Positions 8,101 through 62,809 of a DNA stretch of 64,000 nt are shown here, piece by piece. This stretch comes from a virus: positions 1 to 64,000 of the IMG/VR virus record IMGVR_UViG_3300045988_157167; one strand, written 5' to 3'. The position numbers were made by a program, and so were the translations under genes. The notes under the pieces are model-generated. The model did not search any database. It was not told the origin of the DNA and saw nothing but the letters and a program-made list of their open reading frames with translations. Every line of letters starts with the position of its first letter. Position 1 is the first letter of the stretch.

Positions 8101-9469
8101 CCTGAAAGACTCTGTCATCACCAAGCCATACGCCATTCTTATAATCTGTTATAAAGATTGGGTCACCTTCATCACCTTCGTCAGGCGGAGTTGGTTTAGG
8201 ATTTACAATATTACTAATTTCGTCGAATATCTTATCGATTTCATCTTTTTCTACGCCCATTTTTTCTAAGTATTCTCTTATTTTAGCAATATCTTCATCA
8301 GTTAAATCTCCTATTCCGATGCCACCTAGAAATTCTATAACCTCTTTAATTATGTCATCATTTTTTGTAAGATTTTTTATTTTGCTTTTTACTTCTTTAT
8401 AGTTTGCTAATGTACATTTACTTTTTTTAAACCAATCCGTAAATGATAATTCTAATTCAGTTACCCTTGCTTGTAAATGCAATGGTTTTACATAATCATT
8501 ATCTATAACATAAACTGTATCACCTATATCAATATCATCAGAAAAATAAATTATATTTGTTTCATAGTCGAGTTGAGGTTCTTTTCTTCGTTGTAATTCT
8601 TTCCATGTTTCATTAAGTAAATCAGATGCATTGTCAGCATCACTTTCGTATACTCCTATTATGTAACTTCCATCATCATTATGAAAATACATATGAGCTT
8701 TTTCATCAGCAACAAAGTCTTGATTAAGTGGCTTGTCAACTGGATTTCCGTTAGCTGTTAACCATTCAACATTTCTAAAATCAACTCCATTTTGGCCGTA
8801 ACCAATAAGTGCTGAGCAAAATTCAGATAAATCTTCTTTTTTCTTAACATTATCTACATTTTCTGAATACTCAAATCTTTCATGTGTAACCTTTCCTCTT
8901 TGTCTATATACATTTATATATTGTTTATATACTTTATTATTTTTTATTTCTACCGTAAATTCTATTTCTATATTGTAAGTTTCAAGATTGTCTTGTATTA
9001 CAGTATAAATAAGTGTTGGTTTTTCAATATTAATACTTCTAAATTCATTGATTTGAGGGTCTACATACCCTAATTCAAAACTTGAATCTTGTAGAAGTAA
9101 ATTAAAAAACGTAGTTACATCACCTTGCAAAACACTTTTTCTAACAACTTTATTTAAAAGTTCAAGTCCGATGGTTTCACAATAACAAGTTTTCTTAATT
9201 AATCCGTTTGAGTGTTCACTAGATGTATTTATTATTTGAAACAATTTTATTTTATTTCTGTATTTAAAAGCGATAAAACAGCCTTTTTGTAAACTTGAAG
9301 TCCTTCCATTTGTAACTGTAGAAAATTCAAAACTTTCTGCTCCTGTGCTTAAATAAACTTTATAAATGTCATCAAAAAAAGGACTATTTGGATTAGTCCC
9401 GTTATTAGATAGCACGTCTATTATTTTTTTATTTCTATTTAAAATATATATTTCTGTAACTAATTCCAA
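5135..9469 (-). CDS. tail-associated lysin (Tal, prophage tail endopeptidase) with SLT and two NlpC/P60-like domains
   Basis: 1444 aa located after Dit. SLT motif: IYAVIMGESRGDP...GYGLMQ. Cys-His peptidase-like regions: ICYDCSSMVTCCYGEAGL...THHTLIY and QIDCSTLTKFTY...GDIVFWD...CSHAAIVIG. Confidence 0.85.
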   Translation of the reverse strand: MELVTEIYILNRNKKIIDVLSNNGTNPNSPFFDDIYKVYLSTGAESFEFSTVTNGRTSSLQKGCFIAFKYRNKIKLFQIINTSSEHSNGLIKKTCYCETIGLELLNKVVRKSVLQGDVTTFFNLLLQDSSFELGYVDPQINEFRSINIEKPTLIYTVIQDNLETYNIEIEFTVEIKNNKVYKQYINVYRQRGKVTHERFEYSENVDNVKKKEDLSEFCSALIGYGQNGVDFRNVEWLTANGNPVDKPLNQDFVADEKAHMYFHNDDGSYIIGVYESDADNASDLLNETWKELQRRKEPQLDYETNIIYFSDDIDIGDTVYVIDNDYVKPLHLQARVTELELSFTDWFKKSKCTLANYKEVKSKIKNLTKNDDIIKEVIEFLGGIGIGDLTDEDIAKIREYLEKMGVEKDEIDKIFDEISNIVNPKPTPPDEGDEGDPIFITDYKNGVWLGDDRVFQVKNSKTVSTTDKTNDKYAEALALYEKYDIGKYQNKAELTNLSSTGNKYKLYLIVEYYARKFGLDPNLIYAVIMGESRGDPYSTTGSTGGYGLMQCERSTYFNKKQTITYIDGTTKSFTPSYSTMTPYKGGNATLSGITVDRNILNQIRFGCWELRQAIDYAHGNIFAGLVANNMGQGSLNWIVSKYVCDKYGYTFVDSYYLSSQSNQTKLKVYEELDSRKFDFAAYRQIFKDTKGLGTPNNVELYLCWYKVVNGQLPYYKDAQGNKLGYGVGVSTPKGTGQASASDIRQIIVDTAKAIVQQHTDKLATYDQSYRTWNFKKPNKRKGTFYGIKNPICYDCSSMVTCCYGEAGLKSIFHSDSLCAAGTLVDYATRKSGYTMFKITKTSIEDMLPGDIIMMCNKECPTTLTRAKAMAYKFTHHTLIYCGKVDGTHMVAHARQWDYWPKAIRYMAVYSDIYKYGFCLRPYDLVEVDNNNVEETPVIDKTDMNEVYIKAVRKANAYDFYDDNNNLLSKVEGLFEDDDKVYPSSTPYVLTHFGLNDLTEKGINGVKTLVSILKSKYRNTPIFILKELHVGTAYTDYSTVNTSIDTYNTQIKSFCDNEDDVFLLDISSKLETYTNVLNSSYTSDGYTFKDDASVSVFYDAIKEKLLATPIGYKKKDSGSGGDTGDGDTGDDDGNASKREGKVIDIVLESTKNYYYPKTTIKSLTFRLNSDVDKSFYARLMFTTADEISYSQSKICYLEGVDCVAGQLVPRPNVGYRIIIMANANPNIDYKYYGSVAVDKGEGYAEPYTFKGGKKVAEIAKTYLNRTDLEYRGQYSTTAVKTPASYSNPAKNLSKWYDSTRKKGQIDCSTLTKFTYMGLDYDHSPYANHKMTSLKRNTAYSWAFTFPRNAAEQAEYCVKNGWVLHDVDITNFSNLEAGDIVFWDRDNGENGRYMNCSHAAIVIGPTEDGGTVYTIESTQCPNGVKTRLITENKTDKILFCARPKKL

Positions 9470-11464
9470 CTAATCCAACCACCTTTCATTAAAAATGATA
9501 GAACTTGTAATATCAGCATCACTTGAAATTTTTAAATTATATTCACCTGGAGGTATTTCAAAGAAGTTGCTGCCTATGTCGACATGTTCCATGTTTTTTA
9601 CATTATTTATATAAACTTCATTGTTAGCAAAATCTACTTTTAATGTATCGCCTTGCTTAAAAATAGTTGTATTAAATTCTTCATCTTCTCCATCTTCGTT
9701 TAATTTTTCTACAACTAATCTATTAAAAGTCATTGTATCAACAACTTTTTTATCTGCATATTTACCAAAGAAGATAACAAGATGATTTAAATCTCCAAGA
9801 GGAAACTTATCACTCTTCATTCTTTCACTTGGCAATGTTTTTATTATTTCTCCAGCCTCATTGTATTTTATTACTTCTGCATACCATTCATTATTTTCTC
9901 TTCTTATTGTAAAATGTCCTTTAAATTCGTTCCAGTTTCCTGTTTTACCACTTCTAGGTGTTTTTTTAGTAACAGTTAAACTATCATCAGACCCAGTTGT
10001 TGTAATTATCGGGTCGATTTTAGGTATACTAAATTCTGCATCTTTTAAAAACTCTACATTTCCAACTTGCACAAGTGGATAAGTAGCTTCAAAGTATTCG
10101 TTTTCATCACAAAGCATAACTTTAAAAAGTTTATTACCTTTTTGATCTAAGCCATAACATTCGACGATGCCCATTTTATCTTCTGCTGTATCAACTTCTT
10201 TGTCTGTTTCTATTTGAACTTTATCTCCTTCTATAATGTAATCTGTATAAACATATCCAGTTTGGCCTTTATAAGTTGCTTTAGTATATTTACCTTCTTT
10301 ACTCTTTGGATATACAACAATACAAGTGCCTTTTGGGATTGTAGCTAAAAGCTTTGATTTTTTACTTCCAGTAGCTCTTAAAGAAACTGATTGTTTTGTG
10401 TAATAATTTGCTGTTGTTACTGTAACTTTTTTCAAACCTGTTGAAATTTTTATCCAACCTGTTTGACTACTATAAGTAGTTTTTATCCAGCCGTTTACAA
10501 TCTCATCAGCAGTTAAATAAATACCTTTTTTTATACTTATCAAAGTTTTACTACTAGAAAGTCTTTTTTCTTTTAGTTTTACAGTGGTAGATGTTACTTT
10601 GTATTTAGTCTTTTCTGTTAAACTTGTAGAGCCAGATTCATTATATTCAAGTTTTCCTGTACTATCATGATAAAAATACATACTACATTCAAAATTCGTT
10701 ACATTTTCAGATAAGTTATATCTTAGTGCCGGTCCATGCCAATCGTCTCCACTACCATAATCAGCTGCCTGTATGCACCAACTAGAACCTCCATCGTTTG
10801 GTTGTATTGTTCCGCTTATTGACCTTTTGGCATCGACTTCTCCCGTTACTGATACAAATTTTTCTGTAGTTTCACAAGGCTCATCAACAATAGTAGAACT
10901 TTTTTCTTTTTTCTCATTAGTTAAGCGAGGATATTCACCAACAAGAATTGCTTTTTCGTTTTGGCCATCTATTTGACAATAAGTTGCTTCACCATTAAAA
11001 TCAACCTCGACTATTGCAGGAGTGCTTGTATTTCCCTCATTTACAACACTTAGAGTTTTTTGGCCATTAAAAAGTTTAGCATTTATATTGTGTGAAAAAG
11101 GAATAGGGCATATAAATGACATTTTTATTCTTCGCATACCTTTAGTGATTTTTTCTTTTGAAAATTTACCATCAGGAATTGCTAAATAAACTCTTTCATT
11201 ATCATCAATAACAAGTTTCTTTTCTTCAGAAACATCAAATATAGATGACAACGTATCAATAATATCTTTACAATCTTCCTCTGTATCTGCTTTTATATCA
11301 AAAGTAATTGTTATTTCTTTATAATCATATTTAGAATTTTGATAATATCGACCATTTTCAGATGGAGGATCTAAAAAGTTATTTACTCTTTCTGACATCA
11401 AAGTTGTATCTATTGAAATAACTTTGACAAACATTTCTAAATCAATGTCATTAAACTTAAACAC
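9470..11464 (-). CDS. distal tail protein (Dit) with inserted SH3b-like domains
   Basis: Lies immediately downstream of the TMP with a siphovirus tail-family N-terminus. The central part has two SH3b-like segments (...GIYLTADEIVNGWIKTTYSSQTGWIKIS; ...GTCIVVYPKSKEGKYTKATYKGQTGYVYTDYI). Confidence 0.75.
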   Translation of the reverse strand: MFKFNDIDLEMFVKVISIDTTLMSERVNNFLDPPSENGRYYQNSKYDYKEITITFDIKADTEEDCKDIIDTLSSIFDVSEEKKLVIDDNERVYLAIPDGKFSKEKITKGMRRIKMSFICPIPFSHNINAKLFNGQKTLSVVNEGNTSTPAIVEVDFNGEATYCQIDGQNEKAILVGEYPRLTNEKKEKSSTIVDEPCETTEKFVSVTGEVDAKRSISGTIQPNDGGSSWCIQAADYGSGDDWHGPALRYNLSENVTNFECSMYFYHDSTGKLEYNESGSTSLTEKTKYKVTSTTVKLKEKRLSSSKTLISIKKGIYLTADEIVNGWIKTTYSSQTGWIKISTGLKKVTVTTANYYTKQSVSLRATGSKKSKLLATIPKGTCIVVYPKSKEGKYTKATYKGQTGYVYTDYIIEGDKVQIETDKEVDTAEDKMGIVECYGLDQKGNKLFKVMLCDENEYFEATYPLVQVGNVEFLKDAEFSIPKIDPIITTTGSDDSLTVTKKTPRSGKTGNWNEFKGHFTIRRENNEWYAEVIKYNEAGEIIKTLPSERMKSDKFPLGDLNHLVIFFGKYADKKVVDTMTFNRLVVEKLNEDGEDEEFNTTIFKQGDTLKVDFANNEVYINNVKNMEHVDIGSNFFEIPPGEYNLKISSDADITSSIIFNERWLD

Positions 11465-14400
11465 TTGTTATTCCCTCCAATCTATTTAATCTTTTTTCAT
11501 CTCGTTTATTTTTTTCATCTATAGGTTTTGCAATTATATCTACAACTTTTACTTTATCCATATTAGCTTGGACTTGGATAGGTCTATCACTTATATCTCC
11601 TATAGTTTCTTTTAATGTTTCTCCTAGCGAATTAGCTATTTCTTTTACTGTGTTATTACTTACACTATTTACAATTTTAAGATTACTGTTACTACTAGCT
11701 TCTAATGAAAATTTAGTTGTTTCAGATTGAACAGCCATTTTCATTGCATTTTGCATTTCTGAAGTTACATCCCTAGCTACGGCATATACTTGTTCAGCTT
11801 TATTTTTCATACCAACAATTAAACCTTCGTCCATATATTCTCCATAATCAGTGGTAACTTTTGAAGGCGAATTTATTTTAGCAGTTTTTTTCATTTCTGC
11901 ATTAACTTGATTAACAAGACTTCTTGCTGCACTAACTGCTCTTGCTGTACCACTTTGAATGCCTTGAGTAACACCATTTGCTAATTGTTGACCAATTTCT
12001 CTTGATTGAGTTCTAGCAACATTTTTCATGCTTATCATTTGTCTTGTAAAGTTATTTCTTGCTTCTCTTGATTGAGTAGTTATAACTCTTTTCATTGATA
12101 TCATTTGATATGTAACAGCATTTCTAGCAAGTGTAATTTGTGTTCTAGATACATTTCTAATTGATATCATTTGAGATGTAAGTTTATTCCTAGCCTCTGA
12201 AACTTGAGTTGATATAACATTCTTCATGCTTATCATTTGTGATGTAACAACATTTCTAGCATTTGTAATTTGATTACGTATTATATTACTAATAGATAGA
12301 AATTGGTTTCTTACTATATTAGATACATTTAAGCATTGATTTCTAGCTACGTTTGATATACTTACAAATTGATTTCTTGCTATATTTGCACATCCAACTA
12401 AACTAGTTCTTAAATTATTTTGTAATGATGTAAATGCTTGAGAAATTGAATTTGAAACACTTTGTACTGTTGTCTGTAAAGCTGTTAATTGTGTTTGTAA
12501 TGCTTTTATTTCATCTGTGTTCATACTAGAAAGTTTAGAATTTATTTTGTTACTATTAGAATCTTTGCTAGTATTAAGAGGTTTTTCATTACCAGTCTTT
12601 TCATCAGCATAAGATTCCCCTGTAAACCAATTTACTAAACCTTGTATTATACCGGTACCACCTTTGCTAAAATCAGGTTTAGAACTAGTAATCCAACTTG
12701 TTATTGCTTGCCAAAGTTCTGATGCTCTACCAGTAAATCTGTCAGTTAAGTTTTCAATAAAACTATCAATAAAAATATCTGCAAAGCTACCAGTTAAAGA
12801 TTTTATTTGTTCACTTCCTTCTACCCAGGAATTCATTACTGATGCAACTGCTTCTAAAGCATCATGTATATTGTCTGAATTGTTTTTTATTCCATCTCTT
12901 AAAGCATCTAAAATAACTTTACCAGCTTCCTCAACTTCTGGAGCAACATCTTTAATAAATTGAGAAATTTGTTTAATAGCACTTGAAATACCTTCTCTTA
13001 TATCACCTTTACTTTTTATAATTCCTTGACAAATTTGATGTATAATTTCTTTACCGATAGCTAATACTCTGCTTAATCCACCTTTAGTTATAAAAGTATT
13101 AATTCCACTAAAAGCCTGTTGAATTGCTCCTGATATATCTGCATTTCTTATATATCCAAGCATATTGTCTAATGCTTTTTTGAAATTATCAAATGTATAT
13201 AAGACTTGGCCATCTTCTACAGTGCCTTCTTTATTTCCACTTCTCCAAACACTGAAAAACTCAGCTAATTTTTCAGAAGTAGATTGAATAGCTGGTTTTA
13301 AGAACTCAAATCCTTCTATAGCAACGTCTTGCAAAGCAGATGATAAAATTAATAATTTGTTTTTAGTTGTTTCATCCATAGCTTGCGCCATTTTTTCAGA
13401 TAATCCAGTTACTAAATTTAAATTATCACAATATAATTTGAATTGTTCATCAGATAAACCACATATTTCATTTATTTCATCTAAAGAATCAGATAAACCT
13501 AAATTTGTTAAAATTTGTTCTCTAGTCGCTTGATCCATGTTGCCAAATTTTTCTCTTAACTGAGTTAAATTTGCTATTAAGTCTATTTGGCCGGTAGATG
13601 CGCTTTTAGCAGACATTCCATATTCTTTTAATACTTTATTAGCTTCCTTAAGTGACATATCTGGATTTAACTTATCAATTATTTCTTGTTTAGAAACAAC
13701 ATCTTTTAACCCTTTAGCACTATCTACTATTCCTTTTGTATTTTCATTAATCATGTCACAAGTAGCACTATAGTCAAAAGCATCATCATTAATTTCTTTA
13801 TAAGTTAATCCAAGTTCTTTAAATTGCTTTTTCTGAGAATTTGTAGGATTTCTCATTGCATCTAATACACCGAATAAATCTTCAACATTTTTCGATGTTA
13901 CTTTTGCATCAGAACCTAAAACTTGTAATGCTAAAGCCATATCTTGTGTAGTCATGTTGAATGCAGCACCTAAATATTCTGTTTGACTTAAAACTTCTTT
14001 TAAGTTATCTATTCTTTTACTACATTCTTCTCCAGTAACTCCTGCTTCTCCTAAATTTTGATTCCAATAAGAAACTGTTTGAGTAGAGTTTTGTACACTA
14101 TCAGTTAAACTATCATATGCATCATCTGTAGCATTAACAATTGATAGTAAACCTGTCATACCCGTTTTCCCAGCTAAATCTTTACATGCAGCTGCTTGCT
14201 CAACTAAAGGTAATGATTTTAAACTACTTCTTAAATTTCTTAATGTTTTATCTAAGTCAACTGAACCATCTTTCGCAGTAATAAGTTCTATTCCGTATTT
14301 TTCCATGGCCTTTGCTACAGTATCGGTAGGTGCACTTAAATTTGCCAATAGTGTTCTCATTGCAGTACCTGCACGACTTCCCTTTACTGATGAATTCGCC

Positions 14401-14687
14401 ATAAGGCCGATAGCTACGGATAAATCATCCATAGAAACGCCCAATGTCCCAGCTACTGAACCCGCATATTTCATTGTTTCTCCCATCATTTCAACATCTG
14501 TATTACTACGAGTAATAGTTGCTGCCATATAGTCAACAAAGTTTGATGCTTGAGATGCGGACATATTCATTGCTGTAAGACCATCAGTGACGATATCACT
14601 AGCTGTGCCAAGCTGAGTGGCCCCAATTGTAGTTAAGTTTAAAACATCTTTAATTGATGCGAGTGACTCTTGAAGTGAAAATCCAGC
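11457..14687 (-). CDS. tail tape measure protein, exon 2 (1076 aa)
   Basis: Begins AGFSLQESLASIKDVLNLTTIGATQLGTASDIVTDGL, continuing the conserved TMP core from exon 1. The 15 codons upstream (MEIIHKVYQSFTYRY) fall inside intron domain VI. Confidence 0.85.
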   Translation of the reverse strand, partial: AGFSLQESLASIKDVLNLTTIGATQLGTASDIVTDGLTAMNMSASQASNFVDYMAATITRSNTDVEMMGETMKYAGSVAGTLGVSMDDLSVAIGLMANSSVKGSRAGTAMRTLLANLSAPTDTVAKAMEKYGIELITAKDGSVDLDKTLRNLRSSLKSLPLVEQAAACKDLAGKTGMTGLLSIVNATDDAYDSLTDSVQNSTQTVSYWNQNLGEAGVTGEECSKRIDNLKEVLSQTEYLGAAFNMTTQDMALALQVLGSDAKVTSKNVEDLFGVLDAMRNPTNSQKKQFKELGLTYKEINDDAFDYSATCDMINENTKGIVDSAKGLKDVVSKQEIIDKLNPDMSLKEANKVLKEYGMSAKSASTGQIDLIANLTQLREKFGNMDQATREQILTNLGLSDSLDEINEICGLSDEQFKLYCDNLNLVTGLSEKMAQAMDETTKNKLLILSSALQDVAIEGFEFLKPAIQSTSEKLAEFFSVWRSGNKEGTVEDGQVLYTFDNFKKALDNMLGYIRNADISGAIQQAFSGINTFITKGGLSRVLAIGKEIIHQICQGIIKSKGDIREGISSAIKQISQFIKDVAPEVEEAGKVILDALRDGIKNNSDNIHDALEAVASVMNSWVEGSEQIKSLTGSFADIFIDSFIENLTDRFTGRASELWQAITSWITSSKPDFSKGGTGIIQGLVNWFTGESYADEKTGNEKPLNTSKDSNSNKINSKLSSMNTDEIKALQTQLTALQTTVQSVSNSISQAFTSLQNNLRTSLVGCANIARNQFVSISNVARNQCLNVSNIVRNQFLSISNIIRNQITNARNVVTSQMISMKNVISTQVSEARNKLTSQMISIRNVSRTQITLARNAVTYQMISMKRVITTQSREARNNFTRQMISMKNVARTQSREIGQQLANGVTQGIQSGTARAVSAARSLVNQVNAEMKKTAKINSPSKVTTDYGEYMDEGLIVGMKNKAEQVYAVARDVTSEMQNAMKMAVQSETTKFSLEASSNSNLKIVNSVSNNTVKEIANSLGETLKETIGDISDRPIQVQANMDKVKVVDIIAKPIDEKNKRDEKRLNRLEGITSV

Positions 14688-15368
14688 ATACCGATAGGTA
14701 AAACTTTGATATACTTTATGTATAATCTCCATCTTTTCCCCCGGTCCAAACCGTACGTGCGACTTTCATCGCATACGGCTTTCCATCGTAAAATTTTACG
14801 ACTAGAGGCCTTCGCTCCTAATAGTTTTATCCTCCTTTATACATTACTGTATATAGTAACTATCGGCTATTAATCAACACTACTATGCTTCCTCTGACTT
14901 CTTCTATTTTCAACGATATAGCAATCTCCAATAGAAGATCTCCTAAGTTCCAATAAGATTATCCCTTTTTTTACTTCGACTTAGGTTTCCTCTGTATGTT
15001 ATAAGCTATATATAACTGACTACTTTAATCATCATATATTTAGTAAAACTTTAAATGTAAACAAAGTACGAATGTTTACATTAACTTATAACACTTCAAA
15101 CAAGGATTCGTCTCCTAACCATATCAAAGTTTTTAAAGATGACCACTCCATATAGTTATTTATATAACATCAGGCTTTGTCCTTACCGTACTTTATACAA
15201 TTCGAGTGCTATCTCTTATGCATAACGGGGTATCATCAATATCACTTTAAAGTAGTTGTGATAGAAAGAAATTTCATCTTTCAATTCATCTTATTAGTTA
15301 AAGTTATAAATAACCTCTCAGCTTTTGTTCTCTATCTCAGAGCTTTTATATGCTGAAACTTAGCGTAC
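14688..15368 (-). mobile_element. ORF-less group II intron (681 nt) in the tape measure gene
   Basis: The minus strand starts GUACG and ends ...CGGUAU. Domain V AAGCCGUAUGCGAUGAAAGUCGCACGUACGGUUU lies at 14748-14781, followed by a DVI-like helix with a bulged A. There is no ORF, and the exons join in frame. Confidence 0.85.
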
Positions 15369-26531: not shown

Positions 26532-28283
26532 TTACACACCCAATCTCCTTCTATCCATGAACCTAATTATATTTTTTGTTTTTATTTTTAGTATTTTATT
26601 TGCAAAATCAGAAACAACATCTGCAGCATCATCATGTAGTGTATATGCTGTTCCTTGAAAGTCTAATATCTGATCTGTAAATGCTTTATTATTATCTGCA
26701 AATATTATTTGGCCATTATTAACTGGATCTTGTATAGTTGCAATACGATTATCTTTATTTTTATTATTCATATCATTAATAAATATTAAATTTCTTTTCT
26801 TTAGTTCAGGTATCTTTTCAATCATTTGTTGTATAGTAGTTACATCTGAACCTAAGTAGGTATTTCTTTCTATAGATATATGAGTTATATCTGTAAATTC
26901 TAATAAAATATCAATAATTGTATTACAATACTCTGTGAAACTCATTTTTTCAAGTACCATTCTTCTGATATATTTAAAGTCATTTTCTCCTAATGAACCT
27001 ACTATCATTGCAAATGAGTCAGTTTTCTTTTTCTTATTAGAAGAATTATCTCCCGCTGGGTCAACACAAAGCATTGTTTTTAAAAAAATATGGTCCTCTA
27101 TTTCCTCTACTGATTGAGTTCTTATAGATTTAAACCATTTTTCACCTATACTACTAGCATCATTCATTTTTTCTGACATAAATGATTTTCTATTACTCCA
27201 GTATTTAACTGCTATATCTATAAAAAAATCCCATTTTTCTTCCCATAAAACAGGATATTTCATTTCTTCTTTATGTTTTTCATAAAATTTTCTAGCTTGT
27301 ATTTGAGGATCTTCTATTTTATCGTCAAAATAAATCTTTTTACATTTAATCCATAAATCACTTTCAAATATATCATCTATTGTTTGGCCATCTTCTAATA
27401 AAACAGCTCTATTCATAATAGTATGATAATCTCTATTTCTGCTAAGTTTACTTATTAAGCAATCAATATGTAAAACAGTTCCTATACTTACAAACTTAGT
27501 TGCTGATTTAACTTTTTTACCTTTTCTAAATACTGCAGTATCTCCAACTTCCTCTACTTCTTTACACCATCTATTCCATTTCTTTTCTCTAGCATCTTCA
27601 GTTATAACATCAACTTCGGATTGATAGTCATCGGCAATAACCACCGTAGGTCTTACACCTCCCCAGTTAGCACCACGGACAGAAGTAGTTGAACCTACTG
27701 CTCTTATATATGTATCATTGGTAAACTCAATTTCGCCTGAATTAACCTTGTAATAATCTTTCGAATTAGGCTTTTTACCTTTTAAATCTATTAAGTTTCC
27801 AAATACATCTTTTATAAGCTCATTTTCCAGGAATTCTTTTTTTATAGAATTTAAGAATTGCTCGGCATCATCTGCAGTTTTAGCACCTAATAGAGTAAAC
27901 TTTGATTTTTTATAGCAATGTAACCATATTGCAAGTGTTTTATCGCATATAGTTGACTTAGCAAGTCCTCTAGGTTCTACTATATTAAGTTTATCGTATA
28001 AATCCTGTACAAAGGCCTCCGAGAGAACTCTCCATATTTTATAATGTTCTTCACATAATTCCCTTGCACTGTTGTCATCACTTGGCACGAAAGTTGTTCT
28101 AAGAAAATATAAACTAAAAAAAGTTATATCCTTTTCTCCAATTACCTTTGCAACTTCATTAGGAAGATATTTTTTTCTGATATTATTTTGATTTTTAGGA
28201 AAATATTTCTTTAAATACTTATCAATCAAGTATATAGAGTATTTATTATCATCAGCAAACTCTATATCATCAAAATAAATCAT
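26532..28283 (-). CDS. terL: terminase large subunit
   Basis: 583 aa with a Walker A-like VEPRGLAKST and an acidic VVIADDYQSE motif. Located upstream of the portal gene. Confidence 0.85.
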   Translation of the reverse strand: MIYFDDIEFADDNKYSIYLIDKYLKKYFPKNQNNIRKKYLPNEVAKVIGEKDITFFSLYFLRTTFVPSDDNSARELCEEHYKIWRVLSEAFVQDLYDKLNIVEPRGLAKSTICDKTLAIWLHCYKKSKFTLLGAKTADDAEQFLNSIKKEFLENELIKDVFGNLIDLKGKKPNSKDYYKVNSGEIEFTNDTYIRAVGSTTSVRGANWGGVRPTVVIADDYQSEVDVITEDAREKKWNRWCKEVEEVGDTAVFRKGKKVKSATKFVSIGTVLHIDCLISKLSRNRDYHTIMNRAVLLEDGQTIDDIFESDLWIKCKKIYFDDKIEDPQIQARKFYEKHKEEMKYPVLWEEKWDFFIDIAVKYWSNRKSFMSEKMNDASSIGEKWFKSIRTQSVEEIEDHIFLKTMLCVDPAGDNSSNKKKKTDSFAMIVGSLGENDFKYIRRMVLEKMSFTEYCNTIIDILLEFTDITHISIERNTYLGSDVTTIQQMIEKIPELKKRNLIFINDMNNKNKDNRIATIQDPVNNGQIIFADNNKAFTDQILDFQGTAYTLHDDAADVVSDFANKILKIKTKNIIRFMDRRRLGV

Positions 28284-28337
28284 CTAATCACTCCCTTCTG
28301 AATTTATTTACATAAAAAAAGAGCAGCCAATTAATAA

Positions 28338-28592
28338 CTACTCTTTTGTATTTTTCTTTTTAACATATTTTTTCTTCTTTGATTTATTTTTCTTCTTAGG
28401 AAAAGTCTTTTCTAGTTTGCTTTTAGTCATTGCTCTACCATTTAGGTAACAAATAACTTCTTCTTTTTCTTGCTTACTCTTTTTAACGATATTGTGAGAC
28501 GTTTTTCCATTGATAAATTTATTCATAACCCCAAAATTTCTAGAGTTTTTATCTTTTTCAACATTTAAATAAGCTAATTCATATAATTTCAT
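28338..28592 (-). CDS. hypothetical lysine-rich protein (84 aa)
   Basis: The track ORF extends to 28694 but that part overlaps the tRNA. AAAGGGAGAA is followed at good spacing by ATG at 28592 (MKLYELAYLNVEK...). Confidence 0.5.
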   Translation of the reverse strand: MKLYELAYLNVEKDKNSRNFGVMNKFINGKTSHNIVKKSKQEKEEVICYLNGRAMTKSKLEKTFPKKKNKSKKKKYVKKKNTKE

Positions 28593-28615
28593 AGACATTC
28601 TCCCTTTAAATTTAA

Positions 28616-28693
28616 TGGCTGGCTTAGTGAGATTCGAACTCACAACAAACCATGGTCCGTAGCCATGTGCTCTATCCGTTGAGCTATAAGCCA
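28616..28693 (-). tRNA. tRNA-Arg (anticodon ACG), CCA encoded
   Basis: Hand-folded cloverleaf: acceptor UGGCUUA/UAAGCCA, D stem GCUC/GAGC, anticodon stem CAUGG/CCAUG with loop CUACGGA, T arm GUGAG-UUCGAAU-CUCAC. The variable loop is unusually long at 7 nt. Confidence 0.75.
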
Positions 28694-28699
28694 ATATCT

Positions 28700-29560
28700 A
28701 TTAGAAGGCTTGAGATTAGAGCCTTCTGTAGACACCTTTCACGGCATTATTTATTCTCCGTTTATCCACGCACCTAATACGTATTGTCCATGACTGGTTG
28801 TAATTTTATAGTGCCACAAAACCCTAACACGAGGCACTCTACTATAGTACTACTCAACACTTCGTATTCTGTCTGCCTTGCGAGCAACAAAGGTTTGCAA
28901 AACCACCATGCAACTTCATGTTAAACGATTCACCCTTGGGAGGTGTTACGCACTAGATTATATCATGCAATGATATTCTAGTATTAAGCCACTTTCATAC
29001 TATAAGGGAACAGACTTTTCCTTTTATTGTTTTGTTATCATAGACAATTTATCATCCAAAATTAATATTCTCTATGCCTGTATAAATCTGAATTAAATTT
29101 GACAGACGTTGTGCTGTTCTTGAAGATTCGTTTCCTTTTGAGACACGAAATACTTCACAACATCAGTGTGTTTCATTGAATTCTTACTCCACGTTGTTAA
29201 TACATACTCCAGCCCTTTCACTGTTTCACTATTAACAATGGTTAGTGCCCTTTGTTATCAGCATCGGACTATATAACCTCCTGATTATGTCTCGCTACAT
29301 GACCAATTTGGCGTGAGGTAAATTATTCAGTGCCACCTGAAAATCTTCGATATACGGTTCGCCTTTTCGAAGACTGTCCCTCTTGGGTTACGTAGTTATC
29401 TCCACTACTATCAATTCATGAAGACGTTGGACATTCAGTTCTGCTTAGATGGACTAGTTTAACTAGCGGCATGTAGTCAGCATGCCTTTACACTGCTCAC
29501 ACAATGCTATCCTAAAGATACTAAGCTACCTAAAATAGATTTAGATTTATTTTTTAAAAC
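28700..29560 (-). ncRNA. large (~870 nt) highly structured noncoding RNA between two tRNAs; GOLLD/ROOL-class candidate
   Basis: No ORF on either strand, and visibly GC-richer than the flanks. Many local helices, e.g. GGCAUG-CUGACUA-CAUGCC, UCUUCGA...UCGAAGA, AGUGCC...GGCACU, AGAAGGCU-CUAAUCUCA-AGCCUUCU. Shares its promoter with tRNA-Gln. Confidence 0.6.
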
Positions 29561-29567
29561 ACATACA

Positions 29568-29641
29568 TGGCTGGGCGTAATAGATTCGAACTATTATTCC
29601 AGGAATCAAAATCCTGTGTCCTACCTTTGAACGAACACCCA
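29568..29641 (-). tRNA. tRNA-Gln (anticodon UUG), CCA encoded
   Basis: Hand-folded 74-nt cloverleaf: acceptor UGGGUGU/ACGCCCA, D stem GUUC/GGAC, anticodon stem CAGGA/UCCUG with loop UUUUGAU, T arm AAUAG-UUCGAAU-CUAUU. Confidence 0.85.
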
Positions 29642-29660: not shown

Positions 29661-29706
29661 ATTCTAATCTCCCAACAATATTTTTTCAATCGGAACATAT
29701 TCCTAA
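29661..29706 (-). promoter_or_regulatory. promoter of the tRNA-Gln/large RNA/tRNA-Arg unit with upstream conserved 19-nt motif
   Basis: Minus strand: TTAGGAATATGTTCCGATT (29706-29688) overlaps -35 TTGAAA (29689-29684). A 17-nt spacer precedes -10 TAGAAT (29666-29661), and the tRNA starts at 29641. Confidence 0.65.
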
Positions 29707-29730
29707 TAAAAAAAGCCAGATTTCTCTGAC
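29707..29730 (-). terminator. intrinsic terminator after the recombinase gene
   Basis: The minus strand reads GUCAGA-GAAA-UCUGGC followed by UUUUUUUAU. Confidence 0.65.
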
Positions 29731-29757
29731 TTTTAAAATGTATTATTATTTATTTTC

Positions 29758-30339
29758 TTATTGATATTCTTTCATTCTTCTAATTAGTGTAGCTTTGCTT
29801 ATTCCTGTTACTTCTGTAACTTGCTTATAACTCATGCCACTTTGCTTTAGATCAATGGCATGCTTAATTTGTTTATTTGAATACTTTTGCGGTCTACCTT
29901 CCGTAAAATCTTCTCTTTGTCTAGCTATTGCCTTGCCTTCTTTTGTTCTTTCAACTATCATGTCTCTTTCAAATTCGGCAAATCCAAGGAAGATAGTTCT
30001 TATTAGCTTTCCGTTAGGTGTATTATCCATTAAACCTAAGTTTACTATATGAACCTTTATATCTTGTTCTAGTAATTTGTCTATTATGCTTAATCCATGT
30101 ATTGTACTTCTAGCAAATCTGTCTAACTTAGTTACTACTAATGTATCTCCTGGTTTTAATTGTTTAAGAAGTTTATCAAAATTTTTGCGATCTTCTTGTT
30201 TCTTTGTTCCAGTATAAGAATCAACTACTATGTTTTCTTCTAAACACCCATTTGCTAATAATATTTCTGTTTGACCTTCTAATGAGTTTCCATCTTTCTT
30301 TTGTGAGTAAGTACTAACTCTTGCATATCCATATTTCAT
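29758..30339 (-). CDS. small serine recombinase (resolvase/invertase family)
   Basis: 193 aa with the N-terminal catalytic motif [25 protein letters not shown], and a C-terminal HTH ([24 protein letters not shown]). Confidence 0.9.
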
Positions 30340-30438
30340 ATTTACAACCCCCTATGATTATCTTTTATACTTATATTGTATCATAAGTCTTAAAAGTTGT
30401 AAACCTATTTATGGACTTTAAATATTTGTTTTTAACAT

Positions 30439-34967: not shown

Positions 34968-36402
34968 TTAGTATTTTCTTTTTAAATTCTTTTATTTTTT
35001 CTTTATCGTCCTTTATTTCGTTTATTTCTTGTCTTATACATCTAGCTAAACTACTTTTATTTTCTATAGATTTTTCTATCATTCTGTCTATTCCAGAAAA
35101 AGATAATATATCTATAATGTGGCAGTTTTTATTTTGACCTATTCTATATATCCTATCCTCTGACTGTATTCTTTTGGCATAATCAAACGTAGAATTATAA
35201 TATATCATATAGTTTGCCTCTTGTAAGTTTAAACCTAGATTTCCTATATTTATATTTATTACTAAGGTATTTATATCTTTTGATGTTTTAAACTGTTCTA
35301 TAGCTTTCTCGCGGTCTTTTAATTTTGATTTTCCGTTAACATAAACATATTTTATTTGTTCTTTATCTAAAACATGTTGTAATAATTCTAAATCACTATT
35401 AAATTTATGCCATATTATTGTTTTGCTTCCTTTTGGCGTTAATTTAAGTTGTTCTATTGTTTCTATTGATCTATCGTAACTTTTGTGTTTAAATTCTATT
35501 ATTCTGTTGCATTTTTCACCTTCTATATAATATTCTTCTTTTATTTCTAAATCTATATATCCACTTGCTACTCTATGTAAATAGTTAAGCATATTAAGAA
35601 TATATTCACCATTAAAATTATCTAAATCAATTTTGTCTATAAAATACTGTTTTATTTTGTTGTAAACTCTTTCTTGATCATCGTCAAAATAAAAATATGA
35701 ATCAGTATAAGTTTTAGGCGGTAAATCTAAACATTCTTTTTTAGTAATTTGATAAACATAAGGATTGATTTTCTTTGTTATATAATCTGTATTATGTGTA
35801 TCAATTATTTGCCCTGGATATTTATCTGAATACTCTAAGTGATTAGCAGCAAAAGCATAAAAGCTATTATATCCAAGTATTTTAGGATGTAAAAAATAAA
35901 ATTGACTGTATAAATCCCATATACCCTGTGTAACTGGAGTTCCTGTTAATATCATTCTATTGCTAACTTGATTTGAAAGTTTTGAAATTCTTTCTGTTCT
36001 TACAGCTTTTGGATTTTTAAACATATGACTTTCATCTAGAATTAACATCGAATGTGTGTTTTGTTTAATCAGATTTACTAATTTCAAATAATATTTATCT
36101 GATTTGCTAATTGTTTCACTTCCTATAACACATATAAATTCATCTTGAATATTTTCTATATAAGCAACAGAGAATATAGAGTGTTTATTTATATCTGAAA
36201 TTAAATTCTTTTTAGTAGAACAAGGGCATATCCAAAATACCCTTGTTATTTTACCTTTATTTAATTTATGTTGTATTAATTCGAGTGCAGTTCTTGTTTT
36301 ACCTGTACCCATATCCATAAATAATGCGCACGCTTTCAAGTTTTTAAGTTTGTTAAAAGCATGTTGCTGGTGTTTAAACAAATTAGTCTTCAAGTAATTC
36401 AT
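34957..36402 (-). CDS. SNF2-family helicase
   Basis: Motif I DMGTGKT, motif II LILDESH, and C-terminal helicase motifs (RIYRIGQ). Confidence 0.8.
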   Translation of the reverse strand: MNYLKTNLFKHQQHAFNKLKNLKACALFMDMGTGKTRTALELIQHKLNKGKITRVFWICPCSTKKNLISDINKHSIFSVAYIENIQDEFICVIGSETISKSDKYYLKLVNLIKQNTHSMLILDESHMFKNPKAVRTERISKLSNQVSNRMILTGTPVTQGIWDLYSQFYFLHPKILGYNSFYAFAANHLEYSDKYPGQIIDTHNTDYITKKINPYVYQITKKECLDLPPKTYTDSYFYFDDDQERVYNKIKQYFIDKIDLDNFNGEYILNMLNYLHRVASGYIDLEIKEEYYIEGEKCNRIIEFKHKSYDRSIETIEQLKLTPKGSKTIIWHKFNSDLELLQHVLDKEQIKYVYVNGKSKLKDREKAIEQFKTSKDINTLVININIGNLGLNLQEANYMIYYNSTFDYAKRIQSEDRIYRIGQNKNCHIIDILSFSGIDRMIEKSIENKSSLARCIRQEINEIKDDKEKIKEFKKKILNEF

Positions 36403-36895
36403 CTAGAGCACCAACTTTCACTTCTTTTATTCCTACTATTTCTAAGAAGTTTTCAAATACAATTTCACCTTTTAAGTATCTCTTTAGTGTAGAAATTTTG
36501 TGTATATCATCTACATCACATATTTCAGTTATTTTGCCATTTAAAATGATACAATATTGTGAATAGCCGTAGTTGTTATTTCTATATCTTATATCCAAAA
36601 TATCTAATTCATTAGCTTCAAAATCACCTTCTATAACTACATCATTTCTGCATCTTGTTTCTTGCAAATTATAAAAGTATCTTTCAATTCCTTTTTTACC
36701 ATAAGTACATCTTGCTACGTAGCCTTTATTTCTAATATCACATTCTGTTTTAAAATAGAACGTATAAGTTTTATCTAATATTCTATTAACTTCTGCCTGA
36801 GCTTGTTTTATATCTCTAATTCTTTTATTTAGTTCTTCTTTTATATCTAATGCTAAACTTTTTAATTCTTCTACAGTCATTTCTTTTAGTTTCAT
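36383..36895 (-). CDS. hypothetical protein
   Basis: 170-aa ORF, translationally coupled between the ParB-like and SNF2 genes. Confidence 0.5.
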   Translation of the reverse strand: MKLKEMTVEELKSLALDIKEELNKRIRDIKQAQAEVNRILDKTYTFYFKTECDIRNKGYVARCTYGKKGIERYFYNLQETRCRNDVVIEGDFEANELDILDIRYRNNNYGYSQYCIILNGKITEICDVDDIHKISTLKRYLKGEIVFENFLEIVGIKEVKVGALDELLED

Positions 36896-49112: not shown

Positions 49113-50103
49113 AAAAAGTTATATTTTTTAATACTATGTCGAATGTTCCTTTTTCGTTTTTTCTAAAGCTGTATTTCATTGGATCTTCAAAATCTGTTAA
49201 CTTTCCTTTTATACTAAAGCCAGTATCAGTTTTTATATTTCTGTTTTTAAGTTTCTTTTCAATCCATTTCTTGTCTATTTCAAAGTTTTCAGTTAAACCT
49301 CTATCTTCCATTTGCTCGTTAAAGTTTTCTTGTAATTCTTTGTCTTGAATACTATTTTCAGCAAATTTTTTAACATCTAGAGTTTCTTTTTCTTTTAAAG
49401 TATAATTAAGCATACTTCTTATATCTTCGGCCATTTTCAAATCTTCTGATATTGCATTTGTTATCCAGTTATCTGCAGTTTTCTTAAATACTTTTGTTTT
49501 ATATTTATCATCTTCTATCTTTTCAGCATTTAGAAACTCTGTTAAAAATTTAGTTTCTAGTTGGTCCTTTTCTGCATCTTTGTCTAATAATCTAAAGTGA
49601 TAATAATCATTCACTCCATTAGGTCCAACTATTACACATTGCTTTTGTCGGCCTGTTTCAGGTATACCTATCTCATTTGATGCGATTTGTATGTTAAATT
49701 TATCTTCTACATATTCTATTGAATGAGTATAAAGTTTTTTATAATCAAGTTTTATAATTGCTACATTTTTTTCATCTTTAACACTGTATAAACATATTGC
49801 TAAATCACAAGAATCTATTTCATTATTTCGTTGCATTACTTCAAATAAATATGCTGCTATCTCTTTTGAGTTTTGTAAGAATGTCTTTTCATCGTAAATT
49901 ATTTGTTCACAGCAATTTTTTACGATATTATCGTTGTAATCTTTGAATTTTGCTTTTCTTAGATCATCATCTTTTAAAACTCTAGTTATTATCTTTTGAA
50001 AAAACTTATCTACTTCTAAACTATTTTTACATTCATAGTCATTTAATATTGGAGCATCACTATTTGTATCTAGTACATGTATTATTGATTTATGTATTAT
50101 CAT
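49099..50103 (-). CDS. nucleoid-associated protein (NdpA/YejK-like)
   Basis: The N-terminus MIIHKSIIHVLDTNSDAPILNDYE and the 334-aa size resemble the 37-kDa nucleoid-associated family. Assigned from motif memory only. Confidence 0.45.
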   Translation of the reverse strand: MIIHKSIIHVLDTNSDAPILNDYECKNSLEVDKFFQKIITRVLKDDDLRKAKFKDYNDNIVKNCCEQIIYDEKTFLQNSKEIAAYLFEVMQRNNEIDSCDLAICLYSVKDEKNVAIIKLDYKKLYTHSIEYVEDKFNIQIASNEIGIPETGRQKQCVIVGPNGVNDYYHFRLLDKDAEKDQLETKFLTEFLNAEKIEDDKYKTKVFKKTADNWITNAISEDLKMAEDIRSMLNYTLKEKETLDVKKFAENSIQDKELQENFNEQMEDRGLTENFEIDKKWIEKKLKNRNIKTDTGFSIKGKLTDFEDPMKYSFRKNEKGTFDIVLKNITFYEEK

Positions 50104-50573
50104 TTTTCTTCCCCTTTCAATGCATCTTGGCCAAATAAGGCTACTGCCATTTTTTCGATTATTTTCTTTTTAATGTAATGTACATTTGCTATTGTACAAT
50201 CAAACTCCTCGGCAATATCTTTAAGAGTTTTTTCTTCAAAGTAAATATATTTAAATATCTTTCTTTGTTTTTCACTCATGCTTTTAAACACTTCTGATAT
50301 CACCTTTCTGTTTTTTTTATGTTCAAATATATCTCCCTCAACTTTTGCAATTAAATCATCTATTCTTATAACTTCATTTTCTATAGGTCTATTAATTGCA
50401 TGAGTTGGAGAAGATTTAACCATATCATTACAAACTGCCTTTATCGCCCCCCTATCTCCGTCCTTTATCTTTTTTATATGTTCTTCCTTTTGCTGTATAT
50501 AGATAGTTATAAATTTCATGTTTTTTAAAATCATTTCTGTTTCTTCCATAACATCTTTATTCAAACATTCCAC
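50100..50573 (-). CDS. sigma-70 region-4-like transcription factor (candidate late regulator)
   Basis: The C-terminal MSEKQRKIFKYIYFEEKTLKDIAEEFDCTIANVHYIKKKIIEKM has a region-4 HTH pattern. Confidence 0.55.
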   Translation of the reverse strand: MECLNKDVMEETEMILKNMKFITIYIQQKEEHIKKIKDGDRGAIKAVCNDMVKSSPTHAINRPIENEVIRIDDLIAKVEGDIFEHKKNRKVISEVFKSMSEKQRKIFKYIYFEEKTLKDIAEEFDCTIANVHYIKKKIIEKMAVALFGQDALKGEEK

Positions 50574-61196: not shown

Positions 61197-61427
61197 CTAA
61201 TTACCTCCTTCGTTGTTTTTCGTTTATATATACATTATATTCCATTTTTTTACGTTAGTCAACGAATTTTTAAACATTTTTAATTATTATTTCTCGTTTT
61301 GCATCGTTGATATTTTTGTTTTATTAACGACTTTTTGTAATTTTCTCGTTTATTTTTTTCTATTAATATGTTACAATTATTGTATATTAATAAAATAAAA
61401 ACTTTTAAATATAATTGGAGGCAAGAT
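61197..61427. promoter_or_regulatory. divergent switch region with repeated (T/A)CGTT motifs
   Basis: 231-bp AT-rich intergenic region between divergent genes. Contains tcgttgtttttcgtt, acgttagtcaacgaa (inverted CGTT/AACG), ctcgttttgcatcgttga, ttaacgac and ctcgttta. Confidence 0.5.
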
Positions 61428-61814
61428 ATGAATGGTGTAAATGAAAAAGATATTGGTAAAAGAATTGAATTTATAAGAAAGAAAGAAAAGCTTTCAAGAC
61501 GAGAGTTTGGAAAAATAGTAAATAAAAGTGAAGATGCTGTATATAATATTGAGAAAGCTAGAGCTAAAATAAGTGATGATATTATTTATAGCATATGTAA
61601 TATTTTCCACATTAATAAAAATTGGCTGCTTAATGGAGAGGATGGTATGTATGAAACTAATTCCAAACATATTAGACTTGCAAATATAGTTGGAAATTTA
61701 GAAAAAGAAGAAAATCTATTTGAATTAACAGAAATGCTTCTAGATCTAAATGATAGACAAATTGAGGTAATTAAAGATTTAATAGATGTGTTTAAAGAAT
61801 CAGAAAAAAAATAG
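61428..61814 (+). CDS. CI-like XRE-family repressor
   Basis: Start set at ATG 61428 after GGAGG. HTH KDIGKRIEFIRKKEKLSRREFGKIVNKSEDAVYNIEK. One of only two convincing plus-strand genes. Confidence 0.75.
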   Translation: MNGVNEKDIGKRIEFIRKKEKLSRREFGKIVNKSEDAVYNIEKARAKISDDIIYSICNIFHINKNWLLNGEDGMYETNSKHIRLANIVGNLEKEENLFELTEMLLDLNDRQIEVIKDLIDVFKESEKK

Positions 61815-62104: not shown

Positions 62105-62305
62105 CTATTTGTATTCAGAATCAAATAAGTCAGTTATTCTACAACCTAAAGCTATCGCTATTTTTTCTAGCTTTACTAGATCCAGTACTGTATCGTTATT
62201 CTCCAGTCTAAAGAGAGTACTTTTACTTAGTTTAGTTTTGTATGCTAACTTTCTAAGACTATGATTTTTCTCGTTTCTTACCTTTGAAATATTGTTGATT
62301 ATCAT
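62105..62305 (-). CDS. XRE-family HTH protein
   Basis: SLRKLAYKTKLSKSTLFRLENNDT has a typical HTH_3 pattern. No obvious RBS. Confidence 0.6.
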   Translation of the reverse strand: MIINNISKVRNEKNHSLRKLAYKTKLSKSTLFRLENNDTVLDLVKLEKIAIALGCRITDLFDSEYK

Positions 62306-62382
62306 AAAATTTATTCTAAAATAACTGCTTTTTCTCGTAAATGTAAAATATTTGGTTAATATTCCACAAAAACACTAGAAAA

Positions 62383-62463
62383 GAAAAAAAATCCACCTTC
62401 CGCAAGATGGATTTTCTTCTAAATAATCATAGGTCATATATAAGATATAGAAATACTTTTAAC
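62383..62463 (-). ncRNA. candidate sRNA 3 (~80 nt)
   Basis: Bounded by an extended -10 promoter and the terminator AAUCCAUCUU-GCGG-AAGGUGGAUU + U8. No ORF with an RBS. Confidence 0.5.
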
Positions 62464-62469
62464 AATTTA

Positions 62470-62515
62470 ATTATAACATTCCAATACTTATTTGAAAATC
62501 GGAACATATTCCTAA
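62470..62515 (-). promoter_or_regulatory. conserved 19-nt motif + promoter of sRNA 3
   Basis: Motif TTAGGAATATGTTCCGATT (62515-62497); TGTTATAAT extended -10 (62478-62470); weak -35 TTTTCA. Confidence 0.6.
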
Positions 62516-62522
62516 CTTTTAC

Positions 62523-62650
62523 AAAAAAACAACCGCTCTTGATGAGGGTTAAGAGCGGTTAGGGAGTATTGTTTCATACCATAAATTCTAATGATAAACA
62601 ATATACTAGAAATATTTTAGGAATAAAAAAATATAATCTTAGATAACTAT
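62523..62650 (-). ncRNA. candidate sRNA 2 (~128 nt)
   Basis: Runs from the promoter to the terminator AACCGCUCUU-AACCCUCAUC-AAGAGCGGUU + GUUUUUUU. Carries ACUCCC immediately 5' of the terminator. Confidence 0.5.
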
Positions 62651-62657
62651 ATTATTA

Positions 62658-62703
62658 ATGATACTACTGTTTTTTCAAAACTTCAATCGGAACATATTCC
62701 TAA
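62658..62703 (-). promoter_or_regulatory. conserved 19-nt motif + promoter of sRNA 2
   Basis: Motif at 62703-62685; -35 TTGAAG (62686-81), 17-nt spacer, -10 TATCAT (62663-58). Confidence 0.6.
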
Positions 62704-62709
62704 TTAACA

Positions 62710-62800
62710 ATAAAAAATAACTACCTCACAGATGGAAAGGTAGTTATTCTTTAAGAAAGGAGTACTTATATTAGTAATATAGCTAAAACTTTAAGTCTTA
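62710..62800 (-). ncRNA. candidate sRNA 1 (~90 nt)
   Basis: Runs from the promoter to the terminator AUAACUACCU-UUCCAUCUGUG-AGGUAGUUAU + UUUUUU. Carries ACUCCUUUC immediately 5' of the terminator. Confidence 0.45.
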
Positions 62801-62809
62801 TACAATATA

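Follow-up and report, generated by a model that had tools for sequence, protein, structure and literature searches.

What kind of control puts the same short sequence in front of small-RNA genes and a tRNA unit that lie far apart on one phage genome? The question arises from positions 1 to 64,000 of IMG/VR virus record IMGVR_UViG_3300045988_157167, a stretch of 64,000 nucleotides (nt) called the window throughout. On its minus strand a 19-nt near-palindrome, TTAGGAATATGTTCCGATT, precedes four putative promoters, and we found the same element in front of further phage genes and of one bacterial defence operon. Our best explanation as a whole, to which we give a probability of roughly 0.4, is that the element is an operator bound by XRE66, a 66-amino-acid (aa) helix-turn-helix (HTH) protein of the phage, with activation the favoured direction of control.

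The motif and its promoters

Three copies in the window are exact and the fourth differs by one mismatch, with A instead of T at position 1. No further copy was found in the window at three or fewer mismatches. Chance would supply 0.03 copies, none of 100 shuffles reached four, and GGAA-N4-TTCC is confined to these sites within the window; the four copies in one orientation described in the original prediction are thus real. Also as described, one pair is non-complementary in the otherwise palindromic 12-bp core, GGAATATGTTCC, and a site that is near-palindromic and linked to promoters supports the earlier view that it suits a dimeric HTH protein. The copies, promoter A and the terminator ahead of it are as follows.

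29688-29706, minus strand: putative operator copy A, exact TTAGGAATATGTTCCGATT; the 18-bp pseudo-palindrome is positions 1-18
62837-62855, minus strand: putative operator copy B, ATAGGAATATGTTCCGATT, one mismatch; its TAG is the stop codon of a 60-aa open reading frame (ORF) at 62852-63034
62685-62703, minus strand: putative operator copy C, exact match
62497-62515, minus strand: putative operator copy D, exact match
29661-29689, minus strand: predicted sigma-A-type core promoter A, with -35 TTGAAA (29689-29684), a 17-nt spacer and -10 TAGAAT (29666-29661)
29711-29734, minus strand: intrinsic terminator of the upstream serine-recombinase gene, ending 4 nt before operator A

All four copies end in two T that also open a -35-like hexamer, with a TAnnnT hexamer exactly 17 nt beyond it (TTGAAA/TAGAAT at A, TTGTAA/TAATCT at B, TTGAAG/TATCAT at C and TTTTCA/TGtTATAAT at D), which bears out the promoter layout first proposed for them. 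Comparison with IMG/VR viral contigs, metagenomic stretches and a scan of 185,579 species genomes (one per species) extended this arrangement, TT at positions 18 and 19 and TAnnnT after exactly 17 nt, to 14 of 14 distinct contexts. The probability of TAnnnT is 0.026 per position, and the promoter register was present at none of 13 chance motif matches in unrelated, mostly GC-richer genomes. Because the spacing holds in all 14 contexts, the sites are, by their sequence, sigma-A-type promoters, each preceded at a fixed distance by an invariant operator. When the -10 is placed at -12 to -7 from the predicted transcription start, the operator spans about -52 to -35 in a register relative to the promoter that is identical in the 14 contexts, and the palindrome centre at about -43.5 agrees with the classical activator geometry that had been suggested.

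Core promoter quality averages 4.3/6 at -35 and 5.1/6 at -10. The strength of the -35 is mixed, with good hexamers such as TTGTCA and TTGAAA and poor ones (TTTTCA, TTTATA and TTTAAA) that are accompanied by a TG extended -10. A second element, aTTGGGAaaT, stands directly 5' of the -10 in many contexts and, in the window, at sites A and D only; in the spacer of promoter A it appears as TTGGGA (29675-29670). The earlier statement that sequence identity stops at the motif edges therefore holds in general but not for this element, which A and D have in common as TTGGGA/TTGGAA.

Operator A orthologues are invariant across about 60 related loci with variable flanks. Over all fetched loci, positions 2-19 are invariant and position 1 is T or A, apart from a rare position-3 variant, and no sites with two to four mismatches were found across those loci. 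This variant, ATCGGAATATGTTCCGAT (A to C at position 3; L241, L273), is self-complementary at 16/18 positions, and the element is therefore read as an 18-bp pseudo-palindrome with half-site ATCGGAAYA; self-complementarity across sites ranges from 12/18 to 16/18. Two other readings of the sequence were rejected: a sigma-H or extracytoplasmic-function-type -35 (AGGAAT / GTTCC) has no conserved -10 at the needed spacing, and the half-site spacing is wrong for a LexA (Cheo box) site.

Spread among gut phages and the units downstream

The exact 18-mer TAGGAATATGTTCCGATT occurs about 200 times in about 14 promoter contexts, in two families of human-gut phages. The exact 19-mer was present in 63 stretches in about 35 IMG/VR contigs of 36-78 kb, and the motif-bearing contigs are mosaic relatives of the window (family 1) at 85-99% identity; the 18-mer was also present in about 80 genuine metagenomic stretches, mostly from human gut. 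Outside this phage/host system the species-genome scan returned chance matches only. A megablast of both window regions against GenBank phages gave no match, and the nearest cultured relatives by terminase large subunit (TerL) are Clostridium and Clostridioides phages, merely 37-45% identical, the closest being C. difficile phages such as phiSemix9P1 and HGP05. Literature searches on the motif sequence returned nothing relevant, and those on GOLLD and promoters returned no paper describing this element by title or abstract. The contexts, by letter, lead into the following.

Context A: the tRNA/GOLLD unit
Contexts B, C, D and F: small RNAs (sRNAs)
Contexts E and J: lysis cassettes
Contexts G, H, I, L and M: sRNA-like units
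Context K: the host Stk2 operon
Context N: a regulator/major-head-protein operon

Family-2 phages have almost no genes in common with the window. Most of their sites precede sRNA-like units, which contain C-rich CUCCCAGG stretches; in class J the exact motif precedes a 102-aa gene and then hemolysin-like, holin and endolysin genes, and an ATC variant heads an operon for an XRE-type regulator and the major head protein. The promoter in L196 that is orthologous to one in L273 lacks the motif. Among close relatives of the window, the class E site lies about 2.3 kb beyond window coordinate 1 and heads a ~300-nt terminator-ended leader, an 89-aa gene resembling the C terminus of GrcA/NrdD, a gene for a small unknown protein, a holin and an endolysin. 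This leader (L010 4550-4830) is conserved, noncoding and strongly structured by prediction, and is possibly a cis-regulatory element or another noncoding RNA. The window units themselves, with their neighbours, are these.

28317-29641, minus strand: transcription unit A, comprising tRNA-Gln (29641-29568), GOLLD (29165-28707), tRNA-Arg (28693-28616), an 86-aa ORF and a terminator
26532-28283, minus strand: TerL gene, starting 34 nt past the unit-A hairpin with no promoter between
29758-30339, minus strand: small serine recombinase (invertase/resolvase type) upstream of site A, rejected as a user of the motif
62712-62838, minus strand: predicted promoter B (TTGTAA-17-TAATCT) and sRNA B, about 92 nt (~62803-62712)
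62522-62686, minus strand: predicted promoter C (TTGAAG-17-TATCAT) and sRNA C, about 129 nt (62522-62651)
62378-62498, minus strand: predicted promoter D (TTTTCA-17-TGtTATAAT, spacer TTGGAA) and sRNA D, about 80 nt (62378-62463), with terminator 62419-62384
62852-63034, minus strand: 60-aa ORF preceding site B, with a 97% identical copy in the family-2 locus L273

GOLLD (RF02032) was recognised at 28707-29165 on the minus strand over the full model, at 187 bits against a gathering threshold of 150. No GOLLD was found in family-2 motif loci, so the co-occurrence that had been proposed as a check does not hold as a rule and the motif is not tied to this RNA. Between tRNA-Arg and TerL lies a very basic 86-aa ORF (28598-28338, minus strand) with a good Shine-Dalgarno (SD) sequence, which matched no Pfam or PHROG family and could, by position, be a small terminase or a DNA-binding protein. 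Unit A ends in a weak terminator hairpin (28347-28317), and as the 34-nt gap from hairpin to TerL contains no promoter, promoter A is the nearest one upstream of the packaging/structural operon; TerL is probably fed by read-through from it. An increase in GOLLD during phage lysis has been reported (PMC12286853).

Units B, C and D are short, bounded by terminators and free of credible ORFs. An unpaired ACUCCUUUC lies just 5' of the terminator in sRNA B and an unpaired AAUACUCCCUAA before that of sRNA C; in the family-1 sRNAs B, C, B' and F (B' and F at L109 1121 and 1271) the unpaired consensus (A/U)ACUCC(U/C) sits immediately 5' of the terminator and is complementary to AGGAG, and may thus act as an anti-SD seed. 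Extended complementarity between the B and C seeds and mRNAs was limited to chance-level 10-13-mers. Nucleotides 9-24 of sRNA D are a perfect 16-nt complement to the sense strand (36577-36592, minus strand) within ORF 36383-36895, and an 11-nt match covers the ribosome-binding site of the serine recombinase (30351-30361), which makes these two mRNAs possible trans targets. No Rfam family was found for sRNAs B, C or D, for the class-E leader or for the family-2 RNAs.

Junctions between mosaic relatives fall at or just after motif promoters (L056 126, minus strand; L003 versus site C; class E in L010, L015 and L018), which suggests that the 18-46 bp common to these promoters serve as a recombination joint between modules. 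Relatives also encode an FtsK/SpoIIIE-like ATPase (L010 3503-4507), an 89-aa protein like the C-terminal glycyl-radical spare part of NrdD (4837-5106) and an actin-like ParM of the ALP_N type (8911-9834). No integrase is seen in the window, which does encode the small serine recombinase; together with the ParM-like and FtsK-like proteins, this suggests that family 1 lives as phage-plasmids. Beyond the lysis cassette of relatives stands a RAGATH-18 RNA (RF03064; L010 7040-7100, minus; L022 2637-2697, minus; L015 4403-4465, plus), adjoining a TnpB-like 380-aa ORF (L010 7152-8294). The structural region of the window contains a group II intron domain match (14688-14783, minus strand; RF00029, 64 bits) partly over the 5' end of a 1091-aa ORF (11457-14732).

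XRE66, a candidate binder, and a host copy of the motif

The original prediction offered three window proteins as regulators, and the comparative evidence favours the one adjacent to the sRNA units.

62105-62305, minus strand: XRE66, a 66-aa Cro/CI-type HTH protein resembling CylR2; proposed binder of the operator
61368-61814, plus strand: CI-like HTH repressor, convergent with XRE66; less supported rival binder
50100-50573, minus strand: sigma-70 region-4 protein (phrog_36); rival binder with a close homologue in one sub-lineage only

XRE66 is the sole DNA-binding gene that is common to both phage families and always adjoins the sites. In all three family-1 sub-lineages it is 86-100% identical and lies directly downstream of two or three motif-sRNA units; its family-2 homologues are 53-64% identical and lie 7-900 nt upstream of motif sites, and in L261 the TAG stop codon of the homologue is itself part of the motif. 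Helix 3 reads SKST[LI][FSY]R[LI]ENN, preceded by YKT, in every motif-associated homologue. Homologues with no motif within reach (1.5 kb), 57 of 57 from viral contigs plus four from other assemblies, read SKS.[LI]N[NTD]IEN. Two intermediate variants, P0124 with S in place of R in helix 3 and P0126 at 77% identity, come from contigs that end before the expected sites. On this evidence XRE66 is a good candidate, and probably the protein that binds the operator.

The protein matches Pfam HTH_26 (2.6e-11) and HTH_3 (1.2e-9), and its AlphaFold2 model has five helices at a mean confidence (pLDDT) of 84. CylR2 is related in sequence (E 2e-4) and superimposes with a Foldseek TM score of 0.89 and a root mean square deviation of 1.0 A, with SinR and the controller C proteins next. 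The ATG at 62305 follows a TAGAAT -10 (62318-62313) by 8 nt with no SD, so that the mRNA is probably leaderless. A partial core-like GGAATATTAACC upstream of this promoter is out of register and was judged chance. XRE66 is convergent with the CI-like gene, and motif-less homologues show the same layout in prophages that carry an integrase (L286, L289). All 65-66-aa homologues (L120-L176) have an almost unvarying C-terminal tail, ITDLFDSEYK, despite their differing recognition helices, which hints at a conserved partner-interaction or dimerisation motif.

The species-genome scan gave nine matches to the 18-mer, of which seven were chance-like and one lay in a phage-like 2.2-kb contig of a gut metagenome-assembled genome. 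The ninth is the single site in the genome of Intestinibacter bartlettii N19 (GC content 26%). There the motif, TTTAAA, 17 nt and TGtTAGAAT follow one another about 45 nt upstream of a gene for a 509-aa protein (L072) that matches the PADLOC model of Stk2 over its full length (E 2.5e-189, 497/500 profile positions) and contains a Pfam Pkinase domain (6e-29); its anti-phage role is predicted from this match. KAP-family NTPase genes follow in the same operon (L072 5668-7281; also L073-L077, L232, L243 and L260). The neighbourhood contains leucine-rich-repeat, HicB-like, GGACT, UPF0167 and PT-HINT genes, on a 183-kb contig in L232, and no phage structural genes were seen around the site. The site is kept in two Stk2 lineages with 89-97% protein identity. 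Between them the intergenic region is homologous, about 30% diverged and marked by indels; the motif lies inside its sole perfectly conserved block, of ~40 nt, and the -10 differs (TAGAAT to TAAAAT).

Stk2 is a characterised abortive-infection kinase, which a phage protein activates (PMC6532042). The isolate genomes yielded no XRE66-type protein, and the motif is single in the I. bartlettii genome; the host thus preserves a site whose factor apparently arrives with the phage only. One possibility, which we hold tentatively, is that the Stk2-KAP operon has an XRE66-responsive promoter of the late type and stays silent until a phage of either family infects and expresses the regulator. A phage regulon rich in anti-SD sRNAs and GOLLD might counter such defences. 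The literature searched contained no counterpart of a defence kinase with a phage-type promoter, and we know of no defence kinase that carries one.

Direction of control, rival readings and known systems

We infer XRE66 binding, the sign of regulation, its timing and read-through into TerL from comparison of sequences. In the proposed mechanism XRE66 would be made early, and a dimer would occupy the 18-bp operator at about -52 to -35, its last base pair overlapping the -35 hexamer, as a class-II-like activator in the manner of lambda CI at OR2. It would switch on the dispersed promoters of two or three anti-SD sRNAs and of the tRNA-GOLLD-tRNA unit leading into the packaging genes and, in the complete genome, of the lysis cassette. 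The host Stk2-KAP operon would carry the same operator-promoter, making its kinase inducible by the regulator of the incoming phage.

Other ways to account for the element differ in what binds it or in whether anything regulatory does. It is improbable that XRE66 is a mere neighbour and that the site is occupied by a host transcription factor, by the CI-like repressor or, as a late activator, by the sigma-region-4 protein. The CI-like HTH has a recognition helix conserved in all family-1 sub-lineages, the sigma-region-4 protein belongs to a PHROG of phage transcriptional regulators (phrog_36), and identical sites in two phage families and a host could suggest a host factor. However, no homologue of either phage protein was found in family-2 loci, a close sigma-region-4 homologue exists in only one of the three motif-bearing sub-lineages, and the CI/cro-like switch region contains no motif copy. 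What clusters there is a candidate CI operator, TTTCTCGTTT, a weak hint only, as it is not enriched (16 observed against 15 expected at one mismatch). Nor does an 18-mer that is single in the host genome and absent from other genomes look like a host regulon. The dedicated regulator of noncoding RNAs in the original prediction is very unlikely. Units B, C and D of the window consist of sRNAs alone and unit A is mostly tRNA/GOLLD/tRNA, as are most family-2 units sRNA-like, but sites also head holin/endolysin cassettes, the major-head-protein operon, the 102-aa protein gene and host Stk2. Even in the window the claim that all four units are noncoding stands for B, C and D and fails for unit A, which carries an ORF with TerL starting directly behind. 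We find it scarcely credible that the motif is no transcription-factor site at all but a serine-recombinase site, a mosaic junction or a T7-like phage RNA polymerase promoter. A serine recombinase gene lies directly upstream of site A, module boundaries between relatives coincide with motif promoters, and perfect invariance over 18 nt resembles promoters of single-subunit RNA polymerases. Against this, a crossover site of the hix/gix/res kind was rejected: the copies are all direct repeats, most of them, those of family 2 and the host among them, lie at a distance from any recombinase, and all are locked to a -35 and -10. The fixed 17-nt spacing to TAnnnT in every context is not explained by recombination, homology would by itself be expected to produce junctions at shared promoters, and no RNA polymerase was seen among the large early ORFs of the window (SbcC-like, HNH, helicases, methyltransferase, PAPS reductase-like, RecT).

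Given that XRE66 is the binder, we lean towards activation. The operator centre at about -43.5 abuts the -35 in a register fixed in every context, and the targets are late functions, with a rise in lysis reported for GOLLD. A host lineage apparently without the factor keeps the operator before a suicide kinase, which is sensible if the phage regulator switches the kinase on. Several points weigh on the other side. The contigs on which co-occurrence of motif and XRE66 was assessed are partial, the sites lack full independence, as promoter cassettes with similar spacers appear to have a common ancestry, and the recognition helices of XRE66 and the CI-like protein are both conserved in family 1 and do not discriminate between them. 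Helix 2 of XRE66 is basic, not acidic as in the positive-control patch of lambda CI. The remaining points would suit XRE66 as a repressor of the Cro/CylR2/SinR kind at the -35 edge of intrinsically active dispersed promoters: CylR2 and SinR, its closest solved relatives, are repressors, and both the good core promoters (4.3/6 and 5.1/6), near consensus and with weak -35 hexamers compensated by an extended -10, and the motif-less orthologous promoter of L196 (versus L273) fit a repressor operator better than strict dependence on an activator. The sRNAs, the tRNA/GOLLD-packaging unit and the lysis genes would then stay off until XRE66 is removed, and host Stk2 would be silenced by a resident or incoming phage. 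The apparent phage-plasmid character of family 1 (ParM-like, FtsK-like, small serine recombinase, no integrase seen) is consistent with this, since maintenance repressors with dispersed operators are known from phage-plasmids, and so is the negative feedback that read-through from promoter D into the XRE66 gene would give. Yet a host operator that lets a phage silence Stk2 should decay, while this one lies in the best-conserved intergenic block of two lineages; a constant operator-to-(-35) register in 14 contexts is unusual for repressor operators; and the canonical maintenance repressor is seemingly the separate CI-like gene. Repression by XRE66 is thus a possible reading that we consider somewhat less likely than activation.

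The system would offer a tractable regulator-operator pair for uncultivated phages of human-gut Peptostreptococcaceae, and a defined promoter for GOLLD would make induction of this RNA and its flanking tRNAs directly testable. It also suggests that phage sRNAs with anti-SD seeds are under common control. If XRE66 is indeed an activator, a host abortive-infection kinase would be wired to a phage transcription factor, which would amount to infection sensing by promoter mimicry and to a natural phage-triggered suicide promoter. Promoter mimicry has so far been known mainly from satellites and engineered suicide systems.

A class of dispersed operator-promoters under a phage regulator is of a well-known kind, represented by lambda CI at PRM, Mu Mor and C, P2 Ogr, P1 C1 and the controller (C) proteins. 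At OR2 the CI proteins of lambda and 434 activate PRM as dimers of the Cro/CI-type HTH that abut the -35. XRE66 belongs to the same HTH superfamily (HTH_3/HTH_26), and in both cases a 17-18-bp pseudo-palindromic operator touches the -35 with its centre at about -42 to -43.5. Unlike lambda, the present phages have a single operator at each of at least five dispersed promoters, with no OR1-3 array and no divergent promoter, and XRE66, at 66 aa, lacks the C-terminal oligomerisation domain and acidic helix-2 patch of CI. CylR2, the 66-aa dimeric repressor of the cytolysin operon in Enterococcus faecalis, has the same length and the same MIINN N terminus; XRE66 is about 35% identical to it but phage-borne, with multiple dispersed targets and no cytolysin operon or CylR1 nearby. 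The C proteins of restriction-modification systems (C.AhdI, C.BclI, C.Esp1396I), structural neighbours of XRE66, are likewise small XRE dimers on palindromes upstream of or overlapping the -35, and can activate and then repress. Their C-boxes are paired operators upstream of the C gene in a restriction-modification operon, whereas here each promoter has one operator, no restriction-modification genes are adjacent, and the XRE66 promoter of the window and family 1 has no motif.

Phage Mu Mor and C, P2 Ogr and P4 Delta are late activators to which satellite promoters also respond. Like the proposed XRE66 they are small phage dimers that act at middle or late promoters from a dyad adjoining the -35 on its upstream side, with responsive copies in non-phage elements; their folds are unrelated, however, their promoters have no usable -35, and those copies are in satellites rather than a host defence operon. 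P1 is a plasmid-like prophage on which the C1 repressor recognises 17-bp operators of highly conserved sequence, dispersed over many promoters. One regulator, dispersed operators and, by appearance, a phage-plasmid are common to both cases, but the P1 operators are asymmetric and variably placed relative to their promoters, and C1 is a large, unrelated protein. TgrL of phiCbK, an early phage XRE factor, directly regulates host chromosomal promoters and influences phage production (PMC10462132). In that system the Caulobacter host has XRE paralogues and TgrL represses; we detected no paralogue in the present host, where the proposed target encodes a defence kinase. What is new against this background is the proposed pairing of a CylR2-like 66-aa protein with an invariant 18-bp operator, an operator common to two otherwise unrelated gut phage families, an sRNA-rich candidate regulon that includes GOLLD, and an in-register copy of the operator before a host Stk2 defence operon.

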